DNA of 64,000 nucleotides from Deltaproteobacteria bacterium (GCA_019912665.1 JAIOIE010000018.1:286590-350589); one strand, 5' to 3'. Numbered from the stretch's first letter, positions 42,510 to 50,617 are shown. The notes: a model not told the origin generated them from the letters alone. A program made the numbers and translations.

Positions 42510-42728
42510 TCAGGACTTTTTCATCATCCCGAGTATGCGCCGTAACGGCGCGGTCAACTTCCAGCTCCATGAATTCAGAACGCACTGGAGCTGGCGGTCC
42601 TTCTCGGCAAGCTCGCCTGTGAGCCTCCGGTTACGCTCGACGAGATTACGGAGCCTCTCTCCCATTTCTCCGGGAGTGAACTCCCATTCGGCTTTATTTC
42701 CTGTGTTCTTCATTTCTATATTCTTCAA
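42510..42728 (-). CDS. small coiled-coil protein carrying the C-terminal NSWSWKLTAPLRR module
   Basis: 67-72 aa (ATG at complement 42711-42713, or TTG at 42726-42728). Nearly identical over about 30 aa to the C-terminus of the upstream GT4 (ELAEKDRQLQCVLNSWSWKLTAPLRRIL). Separated from the GT4 stop by 1 nt. Confidence 0.45.
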   Translation of the reverse strand: MKNIEMKNTGNKAEWEFTPGEMGERLRNLVERNRRLTGELAEKDRQLQCVLNSWSWKLTAPLRRILGMMKKS

Positions 42729-42729
42729 G

Positions 42730-44142
42730 TCAGGGCTTCCTTACGCCCTCAAGAACACGGCGGAGCGGCCCTGTTACTTTCCAGCTCCAGGAATTGAGGA
42801 GCGCCTGTATCTGGCGGTCCTTCTCGGCTATCTGGCGGTCCTTCTCAGCAAGCTCGCGCTCCATTTTAGCCAGCTTGTTTATTTGCATGAAAATCCCATA
42901 CAGCTCGTCCATTCCGGTTATAGCGGCGATATCATGGACCAGCCTTTCGTTAGTCGAAGGCCGGGGAGCTTCCTTTGCGTAACGCCCGTAAACTTCCCTG
43001 AATACGTGTTCGATCCCTGAAATATAATTCTCTTTTGTGAAGACCTTCAGGACGCGCTCCCTGCCGGCGGCTCCCATCTTTTCCGCAAGCGCCGGCTCCC
43101 CGAGTATCTTCGTTATGGCCGCAGCCATCCTGTCCGGGGCGCGCACGGGGACAAGGAGACCTGTCACACCGTCCACCACTATCTCGGGCGACGCGCCGGT
43201 ATTCGTCGCGACCACGGGTTTTCCAGCGGCCATCGCCTCGATGGTCGTTCTCCCGAAAGGCTCGCCAAGCGAGGCGACGACTATTATGTCGAGTTCGCTG
43301 AAGACCTCGGGCATGTCGTTTCGGAAATCAACGAATATGACGGAATCTCCGAGGCCTTGCTCTTCTATAAGTCCGAGCAGGACGGGCTTGTACTCGCGGT
43401 CGGGCTGCCCGATTATCAGGAGCTTCGCCTTGCTCTTTTCCTTTTTAAGATAAGCGAACGCGTTTACGAGGTCTTCATGGTTCTTGTGCCTGTGTATTGT
43501 GCCGATTATCCCGACAAGGGGGCAGTCCGGGCTGATGCCCAGCTCCTTGTGGAGTTTCCCGGATGGCTTTGCGCTCACGAACGCGCCGGTATCGACCGCA
43601 TTGTAAACGACCGAGATCTTGCCCTCCGGGGCTGACGGGAACTGCGCCGCCACGCTCTTCGAGTTGGTTATGAGACGGTCGGAAAGGTATTCGACAATGC
43701 TGAACGTCGCGTCGATGCTGAAAGGGCCCCTTAGAGGGTGGTCTTTCAACACCTCCCTTATGTGCCAGACATGCGGCTTTCCCGCGAGCCTTGCCGCTAT
43801 CGCGCCCGATATCCTGGTGATGGTGTTAGTGTAGACTATGTCTATCGACTCGTCCCGTATGAGATTTACGAGAGGCTCGACAATCTTAAGCTCGCTAACG
43901 AACCCGGCCGTTACCTCCAAAAGAGAAGCCGAGCGTATCCAGGGAGCCGGCGACTCAAGCACGACTCTTTTCAGGCCAAGGCCGTCGACCTTCTCGACAA
44001 GCGCGCCTTTTCCGGCCGGGAACACGACTATGGGCTCAAAAACGCTCCTGTCCATGTGCCGGAGGAGAAAGAACATGCTCTGCTCGGCGCCGTAGAACGC
44101 GGAGGAATGGGACATGAAGAGGATTTTTGTTTTTTTATTCAT
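42730..44142 (-). CDS. glycosyltransferase family 4 with C-terminal coiled-coil and NSWSWKVTGPLRR module
   Basis: GT-B core with EGFG-like motifs and GKPVVATN, then a coiled-coil with tandem EKDRQI repeat, ending LNSWSWKVTGPLRRVLEGVRKP. Confidence 0.8.
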   Translation of the reverse strand: MNKKTKILFMSHSSAFYGAEQSMFFLLRHMDRSVFEPIVVFPAGKGALVEKVDGLGLKRVVLESPAPWIRSASLLEVTAGFVSELKIVEPLVNLIRDESIDIVYTNTITRISGAIAARLAGKPHVWHIREVLKDHPLRGPFSIDATFSIVEYLSDRLITNSKSVAAQFPSAPEGKISVVYNAVDTGAFVSAKPSGKLHKELGISPDCPLVGIIGTIHRHKNHEDLVNAFAYLKKEKSKAKLLIIGQPDREYKPVLLGLIEEQGLGDSVIFVDFRNDMPEVFSELDIIVVASLGEPFGRTTIEAMAAGKPVVATNTGASPEIVVDGVTGLLVPVRAPDRMAAAITKILGEPALAEKMGAAGRERVLKVFTKENYISGIEHVFREVYGRYAKEAPRPSTNERLVHDIAAITGMDELYGIFMQINKLAKMERELAEKDRQIAEKDRQIQALLNSWSWKVTGPLRRVLEGVRKP

Positions 44143-48234: not shown

Positions 48235-49592
48235 TAGCCGCCCTCCCCGATGCAGGTTTTCTCAAGCTCGTCGACGTATCGGCTGATATTCTGAAGTTCT
48301 GATTCATACGCGCGTATTTTCCCGGACTTTATCTTAAGTTCTTCGTTTTTATTCTTGAGCTCTTCGTTCTTATTCCTCAGGTCTTCTTTCTTTTGCCTTA
48401 AATCACTTTCAAATTCAGCGGCAACGCCCCTTACCCTATCCTCAAGCAGCTGCCTGAGGCTTTCGGGAAGCCCTGAGATTGACGGCTTACCCTTAAGGAG
48501 TTCCTTGAAAAGCCCTTCGAGCCTTCCCATCTCGGCCCTGTGGCTGTAAAGCCTTTCGATATTGGCCCTGCCCTCCTTTCCCATCCGTCTTCTCAGGTCA
48601 GGGTCGCGGATAAGCTCCTTGAGCCTTACAGCAAGCAGGGCCGTGTCCTTCTCCGGCGCAAGGAAGCCCGTCTTCCCGTCTATGACGACCTCCGGAATGC
48701 CGGTGTGCAGGCTGGATACCACCGGAAGTCCGGTTGCCGAGGCCTCCATTATCGAGACGGGCACGCCTTCCCTGTCGCCGTTCCCAGCGGTGACGGAAGG
48801 GAGGAGGAATATGTCCGCGCCTTCCATTTCCTTCAAGACGGCGGATTGCGGCATGGGGCCGAGAAGCACAACCCTCTCCCGCAGGTCAAGGGCGTTTATC
48901 AGGCCGACGATTTCGTCCTTCAGCTCCCCGTCTCCGATTATCCTGAGCTCCGCATTGCTTATCTCAGAGGCGACCTCCCTGAATGCCTCAATCGCGTAGC
49001 GAACTCCCTTTTTCTCCACAAACCGCCCGACAAAGAGTATCTTAACCTTCTCTCCGGGCTTCCTCTCTATGAACCTGAAATCCTCAAGCCTGACCCCGCA
49101 CCTTATGACCTCGATTTTTCCCCTGAGGTCTTCCCCGAGTAACTTTAGAAGATAGTCCCTGTTGAAATCCGAAATCGTGATCGCCTTTGAGGCCGCTTCG
49201 AATTTCTCGCGGAGCGCGCCTGCGTCCGGGTTTGCGAATATGTCAAAGGCATGGGCAGTGAAGACGTACGGGATGCCGAAGGACCTCGCAATTTTAAGGG
49301 CTATTTCAGTCTGACTCGCCGCAAAATGGGCGTGGATGATATCGGTGAAAAAAAGGGCGGAGACGAGCTTTTCATTAAGCTCGAACCCGATATTAGACTG
49401 GTTCCTCGTAAGGTAATGGGTCTTAGAGAGGAGGCCGTATCGCTCTACGCTCTCATGTACGACCTCTTCCTTCGGCCTGTTGGACGATATTATCTCGACA
49501 TCGTGCCCCATGTCAATCAGGTCGGTTATCTGGTTGAGCACGAAAGTTTCCGAGAGCTTGGGAAAAATGCCGACTATGTATGTTACCTTCAT
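48234..49592 (-). CDS. glycosyltransferase family 4 with C-terminal coiled-coil extension
   Basis: GT-B core with GDGELKDE, LLPSVTAGNGDREGVPVSIMEA and E-x7-E, then a Lys/Glu/Asn coiled-coil (EELKNKNEELKIKSGKIRAYESELQN). Start at MKVTYIVGIF (ATG complement 49590-49592), ATGA-overlapping the sulfotransferase stop. Confidence 0.8.
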   Translation of the reverse strand: MKVTYIVGIFPKLSETFVLNQITDLIDMGHDVEIISSNRPKEEVVHESVERYGLLSKTHYLTRNQSNIGFELNEKLVSALFFTDIIHAHFAASQTEIALKIARSFGIPYVFTAHAFDIFANPDAGALREKFEAASKAITISDFNRDYLLKLLGEDLRGKIEVIRCGVRLEDFRFIERKPGEKVKILFVGRFVEKKGVRYAIEAFREVASEISNAELRIIGDGELKDEIVGLINALDLRERVVLLGPMPQSAVLKEMEGADIFLLPSVTAGNGDREGVPVSIMEASATGLPVVSSLHTGIPEVVIDGKTGFLAPEKDTALLAVRLKELIRDPDLRRRMGKEGRANIERLYSHRAEMGRLEGLFKELLKGKPSISGLPESLRQLLEDRVRGVAAEFESDLRQKKEDLRNKNEELKNKNEELKIKSGKIRAYESELQNISRYVDELEKTCIGEGG

Positions 49593-50617
49593 TTTAACGC
49601 TATCCGAATCCGACATTTTTCTAACACTCTTTTCCAATGCGGGGTGCTCAACTGCTGCTCAAGAAACTTAATCCTTTCGTTCTTTTCTGCCAATTCATTG
49701 CGACACGCGTCCATTTTCAACTTAAGCGCTTCCAGGCTCTTGTGATACTTATAGCATTTTAACGATTCATCATTGAAAAATCGCGCATATGAATTCAATT
49801 CGGAATAAAGCCTTTCTGTTTCCAAATTGAGCAAATCATCAGCATTCGCATTTCTTCTTATTACATTTTGGAGAAGTTCCCAAAATGTGATAACAGAAGA
49901 AGGCGCGTCAGACCTTCTCAATTCATCAATTCCGGTAATATTATGTCGTAGGTCTGGCCGTATGAATTGCTTTATTTGAGTTCTTATCTCTTCGCCTTCC
50001 GGCCATGGCAAATCGAGAGCCGCCGAGCATCTTCGCATTTGATTTTCACAGTCCATCATGAAATCATCAAAAGAAATAAGAGCATGCTGGACAAATTTGG
50101 TCGAGCGCAAGATGCAAAGGTTATAGTTCAGCCATATTCCGTATATTTTATTACGGCTACTAGGGTCTGTTCGTTTTTCCAGCGAGCCTACTACCTCAAG
50201 AGGATTCCTTATTATGACGATGCACGAAAGATGGATTCCGAGTTCTTTGAGCGCGTTTTTCCAAATTTCCAGCAATATGGAGGTACGCGGATCTTTCCAC
50301 ATCCATAGCTTTTGATCCTTATATTTTGCCCTTATCAAGTCAATGAGCTCAGTCCTGAAAGGCTTCATCTCGTTCATAAGATGCCAGCCCTCAGGCAAGG
50401 GGGCGGCCGTACGCCAATCCCTGTTGAAATGATCTAAAATCTTGTCATGCAGGTCAACAATGGCTTGCTGCTCCCAATATCCCTCGGGATTGAACCTTGA
50501 TTTGGGCACCAAATCGGTTTCCTCGCCGATGTACGCGCCAAGAAGGTTTACCGCCCGCGCAAGTGCGGAAGTCCCGCTTCTGTGCATGCCGAGAATGCCG
50601 ATTGCCCTTTGTTCCAT
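49589..50617 (-). CDS. sulfotransferase-family protein with C-terminal coiled-coil
   Basis: GMHRSGTSALARAV is the PAPS 5'-phosphosulfate-binding P-loop-like motif of the sulfotransferase family. C-terminal LAEKNERIKFLEQQLSTPHWKRVLEK is a degenerate copy of the coiled-coil module. About 35-40% GC. Confidence 0.7.
   Translation of the reverse strand: MEQRAIGILGMHRSGTSALARAVNLLGAYIGEETDLVPKSRFNPEGYWEQQAIVDLHDKILDHFNRDWRTAAPLPEGWHLMNEMKPFRTELIDLIRAKYKDQKLWMWKDPRTSILLEIWKNALKELGIHLSCIVIIRNPLEVVGSLEKRTDPSSRNKIYGIWLNYNLCILRSTKFVQHALISFDDFMMDCENQMRRCSAALDLPWPEGEEIRTQIKQFIRPDLRHNITGIDELRRSDAPSSVITFWELLQNVIRRNANADDLLNLETERLYSELNSYARFFNDESLKCYKYHKSLEALKLKMDACRNELAEKNERIKFLEQQLSTPHWKRVLEKCRIRIALK

Follow-up and report, generated by a model that had tools for sequence, protein, structure and literature searches.

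A sharply conserved coiled-coil tail module on glycan-assembly enzymes and two small stand-alone proteins of a Wzm/Wzt gene cluster

Coiled-coil rulers are the accepted length-setting device for O-antigens, capsules and wall polymers made by ATP-binding cassette (ABC)-transporter-dependent pathways. In WbdD, the chain terminator and 'molecular ruler' of Escherichia coli O9/O9a and Klebsiella O3/O5, a trimeric coiled coil holds the catalytic domains ~200 Å from the membrane, and the C-terminal region past the coiled coil, which serves membrane association and recruitment of the polymerase WbdA, is structurally uncharacterised (PMC3482155, PMC5082667, PMC6286764, PMC11231755); reviews describe the membrane end of the ruler in the same terms. 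A coiled coil also separates or follows the catalytic modules of Klebsiella O12 WbbB, O7 ORF6 and O4 ORF7, and each protein is described as a scaffold of the complex that is itself membrane-associated (PMC11231755). Here we analyse a 64,000-nucleotide stretch of a Deltaproteobacteria bacterium genome (GCA_019912665.1, JAIOIE010000018.1:286590-350589; 'the window', with positions counted from its first letter), in which a ~17-kb gene cluster on the minus strand (~37.4-54.0 kb) carries repeated copies of a C-terminal module composed of a coiled coil, a tryptophan-centred motif and a basic tail. We assign the module to an established class, the coiled-coil scaffold tails found in ABC-transporter-dependent glycan assembly, of which it is an undescribed, widespread and sharply conserved variant. 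In this cluster it also stands alone in two small open reading frames (ORFs) of 67 and 74 amino acids (aa), mini-ORF 1 and mini-ORF 2; as far as we found, this conserved enzyme-less form is new within the literature searched.

Module copies and two small genes in the window

A sequence-only reading of the window had placed the motif at the end of a family 4 glycosyltransferase (GT4) and in both mini-ORFs, and these placements hold. A W-x-x-T-x-PLR regular expression applied to all six frames matches three times, always on the minus strand and at those places, and a profile hidden Markov model (HMM) built from 83 diverse copies and run against all 1398 stop-to-stop frames of the window scores the same three copies at 63-65 bits (E ~1e-18 to 1e-19; Table 1). 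The next-best frame reaches 6.6 bits, so the observation lies far beyond chance. Just upstream of its motif the 470-aa GT4, which bears the module in cis, has AEKDRQI repeated twice, and ELAEKDRQ(I/L)Q is common to this tail and mini-ORF 1.

Five of the 18 cluster proteins bear the module now or bore it formerly, counting three strong and two decayed copies. A degenerate copy had been proposed at the end of the sulfotransferase. The tail has no significant match to the module profile HMM (E = 11), but BLASTP aligns it to the GT4 tail at E = 0.003 with a gap that exactly spans VTGPLR. A heptad block, KNERIK(I/F)LE, is common to this tail and mini-ORF 2. Because of the alignment to the GT4 tail, and because P0072, the closest homologue of the sulfotransferase in the hit set (43% identity), has the complete motif at the same position, its end, we take the sulfotransferase tail to be a decayed fifth copy. 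A fourth copy had been missed. It ends a family 2 glycosyltransferase (GT2), whose last residues, FSRKLTAPMRAFYGSLKGLLP, lie where the full-length homologues P0024 (44% identity) and P0019 keep an intact motif; the tail is therefore a diverged copy that has lost its tryptophan and its coiled coil.

The two small ORFs are genuine genes under purifying selection. They are intact, separate and in the same gene order in the related loci L001-L007, which represent two lineages besides the window, L001 being a finished 2.75-Mb Thermodesulfobacteriota chromosome and L007 a more distant contig. Between the window and L001 or L007 the ratio of non-synonymous to synonymous substitution rates (dN/dS) is 0.15-0.19 for the 67-aa ORF and 0.11-0.26 for the 74-aa ORF; five neighbouring enzymes give 0.07-0.16 against their relatives. 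The sole indel in mini-ORF 2 is an in-frame 7-aa insertion in L007, exactly one heptad, and the database protein P0002 is 100% identical to mini-ORF 2. Fused and stand-alone forms of the module thus both exist, as had been proposed, and the small ORFs are conserved, against one of the two objections foreseen in that proposal.

The start of mini-ORF 2 overlaps the stop codon of the GT4 upstream (48234-49592), as TAATG in the window and L007 and as TAAATG in L001, and is preceded by a conserved GGGGAGGG, a Shine-Dalgarno sequence; its 3′ end shares 26 nucleotides (nt) with the start of the methyltransferase gene that follows. The suggested coupling of the two genes is therefore a real overlap, for which termination-reinitiation is the simple reading. 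We considered and rejected a programmed frameshift or readthrough that joins this GT4 to mini-ORF 2: the frames are offset by -1 in both the window and L007 but coincide in L001, and since their relation varies among relatives a conserved recoding event is unlikely. The limits first given for mini-ORF 1 (42510-42728, 1 nt from the upstream GT4) needed correction, as an ATG at 42713 is conserved in relatives and leaves a 17-nt gap, and in two related genomes the TTG at 42728 does not share the frame of this ATG.

Both mini-proteins are detached tails of larger enzymes, because fused counterparts, P0081 and P0011, exist elsewhere. The GT4 upstream of mini-ORF 2 is 60% identical to residues 1-452 of the 1452-aa P0081, which continues through a coiled coil and the motif (~residues 505-525) into a second GT4 and a GT2; this GT4 and mini-ORF 2 together are collinear with the first ~525 residues of the fused protein. 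The alignment of mini-ORF 1 to P0011, a 407-aa GT2, is gap-free and covers the final 60 residues of that enzyme (53% identity, E = 4e-22). A recent tandem duplication of the neighbouring GT4 tail is a less likely source of mini-ORF 1 than descent from a GT2 tail, because 60 residues align to P0011 versus 45 to P0006, the cluster representative for the GT4 tail in this comparison.

Table 1 Features of the glycan cluster and coordinates of the module copies in the window
Feature	Position	Strand	Basis or remark
Wzm permease	53212-54030	-	Pfam ABC2_membrane
Wzt ATPase	51918-53207	-	NCBIfam TagH/Wzt matches; L001 orthologue is ABC_tran + Wzt_C (carbohydrate-binding domain)
Sulfotransferase with C-terminal coiled coil	49589-50617	-	Sulfotransfer_3, weak, 22 bits, below cut-off
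Sulfotransferase tail, decayed module copy, HWK retained, TxPLR gone	49592-49696	-	BLASTP; homologue P0072
GT4 with C-terminal coiled coil, without motif	48234-49592	-	Pfam; 60% identity to P0081 residues 1-452
Mini-ORF 2, 74 aa, coiled coil, motif and basic tail	48010-48234	-	Conserved Shine-Dalgarno sequence; orthologues separate
Mini-ORF 2 motif core NSISWKITGPLRR	48040-48078	-	Regular expression and profile
GT4, 470 aa, module in cis	42730-44142	-	Pfam Glycos_transf_1 / Glyco_transf_4; module HMM 65.5 bits, residues 429-470
Residues 415-470 of the 470-aa GT4, spanning coiled coil, motif and basic tail	42733-42900	-	Regular expression, HMM
GT4 tail motif core NSWSWKVTGPLRR	42757-42795	-	Regular expression and profile
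Mini-ORF 1, 67 aa, helix, motif and basic tail, stand-alone gene	42510-42713	-	Orthologue P0001, 87% identity
Mini-ORF 1 motif core NSWSWKLTAPLRR	42537-42575	-	Regular expression and profile
GT2 with diverged module copy	37383-38417	-	Pfam GT2; best sub-threshold HMM frame, 6.6 bits
GT2 last 21 aa FSRKLTAPMRAFYGSLKGLLP	37386-37448	-	W replaced by R, without coiled coil; tail conserved in L001-L003

Anatomy, distribution and possible kinship with WbdD

Across 184 copies the consensus reads (I/L)-x-A-(L/I)-(L/Y)-N-S-x-S-W-(K/R)-(I/V/L)-T-x-P-L-R-(R/K)-(L/I/V)-x-x-x-(L/F)-(K/R)-(K/R), and S-3, S-1, W0, T+3, P+5, L+6 and R+7 are each at least 92% conserved across phyla and archaea. In the same copies the 24 residues upstream follow a heptad pattern, with hydrophobic residues at -23, -20, -16, -13, -9 and -6, and further hydrophobic positions (-2, +2, +6, +9 and +13) continue the 3-4 spacing through and after the motif, which usually lies 17-25 residues from the C terminus. 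The 12-mer that begins at the invariant proline has a mean hydrophobic moment of 0.56 and a net charge of +2.9, versus 0.28 and -0.2 in control segments of the same proteins, values near those of the FtsA membrane-targeting sequence (0.64, +3). In helical projection, the side formed by the invariant residues (S, S, W, T and R) would lie opposite a variable hydrophobic stripe; the near-invariance of these residues points to a further specific contact, be it inside the bundle or with a partner. AlphaFold 2 (AF2) monomer models of both mini-proteins, made from a shallow 15-sequence alignment, give for mini-ORF 1 a helix at 14-46, a break at N47-S48, a helix at 49-53, a break at T54 and a helix at 55-66 (predicted local distance difference test (pLDDT) ~90), and for mini-ORF 2 a helix at 3-53, a break at S54 and a helix at 55-73 (mean pLDDT 90).

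The recurrent fusion of coiled coil and tryptophan motif to glycan enzymes, first seen within the window, extends to many bacterial phyla and to methanogens. In a search of 1.84 billion representative proteins, a profile made from three sequences matches 654 representative clusters at E <= 1e-3. Among 152 matched proteins examined, 151 contain the motif, 125 of the 152 have it no more than 45 residues from the C terminus, and 30 have two or three copies by regular expression, with up to four matched stretches in some by hmmsearch; in ~20% of proteins it lies internally, between catalytic modules. Fusion partners in two independent samples, of 60 and 95 proteins, are glycan enzymes only: GT2s (14 and 29 proteins, respectively), class-I, FkbM and Methyltransf_24 methyltransferases, GT4s, RgpF, sulfotransferases, pyruvyl transferases and similar enzymes.

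A genome survey, which used a back-translated pattern for the Lys variant only and one genome per species, returned at least 120 matches, genuine except for ~3 (~118 genuine among the matches listed). Those listed come from Proteobacteria, Desulfobacterota, Bacillota, Actinomycetota, Cyanobacteria, Bacteroidota, Saccharibacteria, Nitrospira, Omnitrophota and Chloroflexota, and from the archaea Methanobrevibacter, Methanosphaera and Methanobacterium. In 37-40 of the ~118 genuine matches listed, Gram-positive and archaeal loci included, the same 8-kb stretch also encodes a Wzt/TagH-type ATPase (180-310 bits), a Wzm permease or both, and in 13 of these listed loci the motif gene is immediately downstream of wzt. 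Stand-alone copies are rare (~5 of the 118 species-representative genomes among the matches listed). Methanosphaera L048 has the motif in a 21-codon frame (2083-2148) that shares 13 nt with the end of a 420-aa frame, itself terminated by a coiled coil, and is a frameshifted copy or an assembly error; in L133 a GT4 split into two ORFs precedes a 65-aa module ORF, which looks like a frameshift artefact too.

Consistent with the failure of the sequence-only reading to place the module in a named domain, no Pfam or NCBIfam model covers the motif in the enzyme tails or mini-ORFs. Profile search of PDB sequences found the motif in no chain, giving chance coiled-coil matches only, and Foldseek with the AF2 model returned no relevant structure. 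Several written-out spellings of the motif retrieved no relevant paper from the full-text searchable literature; tblastn of the consensus module against plasmids gave a single weak match; and a word-indexed protein search with the mini-ORFs or the module alignment as query, too insensitive for a 36-aa module, recovered close orthologues and fragments only.

WbdD is among the described systems that come closest to the module. Like the module bearers here, WbdD belongs to a Wzm/Wzt-dependent cluster and runs from an N-terminal catalytic domain through a parallel coiled-coil stalk to a motif-like S-x-S-W-R-x-T (592-598) and then a basic, hydrophobic segment. We examined the O9 cluster of E. coli HS (L129 13117-23584) because wbdD occupies the gene position directly after wzt, as do the motif genes of the 13 listed loci. 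In a targeted test of five O9 proteins against the module HMM, WbdD residues 569-599 match at 19 bits (independent E-value 2.4e-7). The stalk end of this 708-aa protein reads ...NENQQLRQEIEKIHRSRSWRMTKGYRYLGLQIHLLRQYGFVQRCKHFIKRVLRFVF..., with S592-RSWRMTKGYRYL at the end of the coiled coil, and its SRSWRMT (592-598) is followed by KGYRYL where the family has x-P-L-R-x-L, that is, by G-Y-R for P-L-R. The motif stretch is identical in a variant with a C-terminal coding region 89% identical in DNA. As the match directly precedes the region published as membrane- and WbdA-binding, WbdD would be a divergent bearer of the module, in which the motif marks the junction between ruler and membrane end.

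The two also differ. WbdD runs ~105 hydrophobic and basic residues past the motif, whereas the canonical module stops after 12-25; its stalk measures ~130 aa versus 30-60 aa here; and it is a terminator, whereas the bearers here are mainly glycosyltransferases and two enzyme-less mini-proteins. The WbdD literature (PMC3482155, PMC5082667, PMC6286764, PMC11231755) describes neither a conserved motif nor stand-alone forms. The RefSeq annotation of WbdD is just 'class I SAM-dependent methyltransferase', and DNA matching its C-terminal coding region occurs in 263 of 5426 complete E. coli genomes.

Of the features that define a WbdD-type tail, Wzm and Wzt in the cluster and a coiled coil C-terminal to the catalytic domain are both present here. 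P0081, P0093 and P0007 have the enzyme-coiled coil-enzyme layout of the Klebsiella multimodule proteins, which were compared by description only, with the motif at the junction. The targeting sequences of FtsA and MinD resemble the module in being C-terminal, ~12 residues long and cationic with a high helical hydrophobic moment, and the module does end in such a short cationic amphipathic helix. Those sequences are, however, poorly conserved and lack a preceding coiled coil, whereas the module has a 12-residue core that is near-invariant in two domains of life and, with seven positions at 92% or more, does not show the free sequence variation of such anchors. The concern that the motif might be a generic amphipathic anchor therefore applies to the tail and not to the core.

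A candidate membrane-side foot and competing explanations

We favour, with moderate confidence, a reading in which coiled-coil stalks organise the cytoplasmic enzymes of Wzm/Wzt-dependent glycan assembly and the module serves as the membrane-proximal foot of these stalks. A parallel coiled coil would stop at the conserved Asn-Ser helix break, where Ser and Asn would cap the stalk; the near-invariant S-x-S-W-(K/R)-x-T-x-P-L-R would form a capped elbow, with Thr-x-Pro capping the next helix; and from the proline onwards a cationic amphipathic helix of 12-20 residues would lie on, or point at, the inner membrane face. The attached glycosyltransferase, methyltransferase or sulfotransferase would then be held beside the lipid-linked glycan and its partner enzymes. 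The cluster would accordingly comprise one GT4 with its foot in cis, a GT2 and a sulfotransferase with decayed feet, and two translationally coupled genes that encode nothing but stalk and foot. The mini-proteins would most likely join enzymes of the complex by way of coiled-coil pairing. Candidate partners are the GT4 upstream of mini-ORF 2, a coiled-coil protein without a foot, and perhaps also the 470-aa GT4 and the sulfotransferase, the tails of which have heptad blocks in common with the mini-proteins. Membrane binding, oligomeric state and trans pairing of the mini-proteins are predictions from sequence. The guess that the module is an assembly or ruler device, or a membrane-targeting one, thus gains partial support, from the junction copy in WbdD and the cationic amphipathic segment after the proline.

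Several observations weigh against this reading. A generic membrane anchor would have no need of a 12-residue core that is near-invariant from methanogens to proteobacteria; conservation so strict points to a specific contact, structural or with a protein, in addition. Since the 3-4 hydrophobic spacing runs on past the motif, the last helix could stay in the bundle and not on the membrane. WbdD matches the first half of the motif only. The predicted membrane binding and trans pairing draw on monomer models and sequence, and the two AF2 models disagree, with a break at Thr in mini-ORF 1 and none in mini-ORF 2. Both coiled-coil halves lie end to end in P0081, so side-by-side pairing after fission is not implied. 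The Wzm/Wzt linkage is a strong tendency, counted without a matched control set and therefore not called a measured enrichment. Finally, Methanobrevibacter L131 (7001-7171) has an orphan 56-aa ORF that consists of a basic helix and a perfect motif only, found on 12 contigs and located between the genes for aspartyl-tRNA synthetase and histidinol dehydrogenase with no glycan gene in the 14 kb covered.

Because S, S, W, T and R are near-invariant, two other explanations stay live. In one, which we consider a lesser but real possibility, the motif is a docking peptide for a protein partner (Wzm/Wzt, a polymerase glycosyltransferase or another stalk) and not a lipid binder, and the mini-proteins are adaptors or competitors that set stoichiometry and hence chain length. 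The core is conserved as generic amphipathic anchors are not, and the invariant residues would gather on one helical side; motif genes are tightly linked to wzt and often follow it directly, some proteins have 2-4 tandem copies, and the C-terminal region of WbdD recruits the polymerase WbdA too (PMC3482155, PMC11231755). Yet the motif barely varies over bacteria and archaea, in contrast to the great diversity of Wzm/Wzt and of the partner enzymes; in two thirds of the listed genome matches the 8 kb examined contain no Wzt; and no co-varying partner was identified.

In the other, which we judge unlikely, the role of the motif is purely structural: it caps or triggers the coiled coil and sets its register and oligomeric state in the manner of a foldon, and membrane contact is made only by terminal basic residues or by other parts of the complex. 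Hydrophobic spacing that continues through the motif, AF2 helix on both sides of a single break, Ser and Thr at classical helix-capping positions beside Pro, and an internal motif between the catalytic modules of ~20% of proteins would all fit an end-cap. Such a role sits poorly with the strongly cationic and amphipathic segment after the proline and the usual placement of the motif 17-25 residues from the C terminus, with WbdD, in which the membrane-association region comes after the equivalent position, and with the decayed GT2 copy, which retains KLTAPMR and its tail without any coiled coil.

A further possibility, which we likewise regard as improbable, is that the motif is a universal address tag for one conserved bacterial and archaeal site, for example the polyprenyl-phosphate-linked acceptor or Wzm/Wzt, and that the mini-proteins are trans-acting adaptors or competitors that tune occupancy of the assembly site; if so, they would be previously unrecognised small regulators of glycan chain length and modification. 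It is very improbable that gene fission or assembly errors left the small ORFs as inert remains and that only fused copies matter: stand-alone copies are scarce and some of those elsewhere resemble frameshift artefacts (L048, L133), but the two here are intact and separate in the window and all of L001-L007, the finished chromosome included, and have dN/dS values (0.11-0.26) like those of flanking enzymes. The indel in L007 is in frame and exactly one heptad long, and a conserved Shine-Dalgarno sequence is present together with start-stop coupling.

Cluster setting and significance

The cluster opens with Wzm, Wzt, adenosine 5′-phosphosulfate (APS) kinase, a methyltransferase and the sulfotransferase, continues with the GT4 with a coiled-coil tail, the 74-aa ORF and further methyltransferases and glycosyltransferases, and closes with the 470-aa GT4, the 67-aa ORF, two methyltransferases, a GT4 and two GT2s. 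The presence of Wzm and Wzt genes marks it as ABC-transporter-dependent, and its layout is that of a glycan pathway of this type with terminal methyl and sulfate decoration. G+C content is 0.49-0.52 in the middle of the cluster (44000-52000) versus 0.56-0.60 in both flanks, as expected for a horizontally exchanged polysaccharide cassette.

Gene content varies among relatives. The 342-aa coiled-coil sulfotransferase has no counterpart found in the related loci L001, L002 and L007; L001 has an unrelated 246-aa sulfotransferase (1595-2335) between wzt and APS kinase, and the sulfation enzyme has apparently been swapped between these close relatives. Methyltransferase cassettes are variable as well: an extra zinc-ribbon class-I methyltransferase of the window (45226-45990), between a GT2 and a 352-aa GT4, is absent from L001, and an FkbM-type methyltransferase of L007 (4817-5614) is at another place and missing from L001. 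The mechanically called ORF at 46072-47331 (419 aa, GTG start) is over-extended; its orthologues have 317 aa, which puts the real start near 47025, where it overlaps the stop codon of the methyltransferase gene before it. Adjoining the cluster, in L001 as in the window, are genes for a MacB/FtsX-type ABC exporter, here with its ATPase and membrane-fusion protein (31783-36061). A plus-strand ORF (36664-37344) resembles an XRE-type helix-turn-helix/S24 LexA-like repressor, and at the window edge (60966-63927) an A/V-type ATPase is represented by its A, B and D subunit genes.

A 12-residue signature for the membrane end of the ruler, found in hundreds of protein families from relatives of E. coli to methanogens, would provide a simple sequence handle with which to find and orient such scaffolds. 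It also gives mutagenesis of the WbdD model system a well-defined target, and is a candidate for a portable tag with which engineered glycan enzymes could be brought to the membrane. That conserved enzyme-less mini-proteins exist suggests that the foot may be supplied, or competed for, separately from the enzymes, which, if true, would add a new layer of control over the composition of glycan-assembly complexes.

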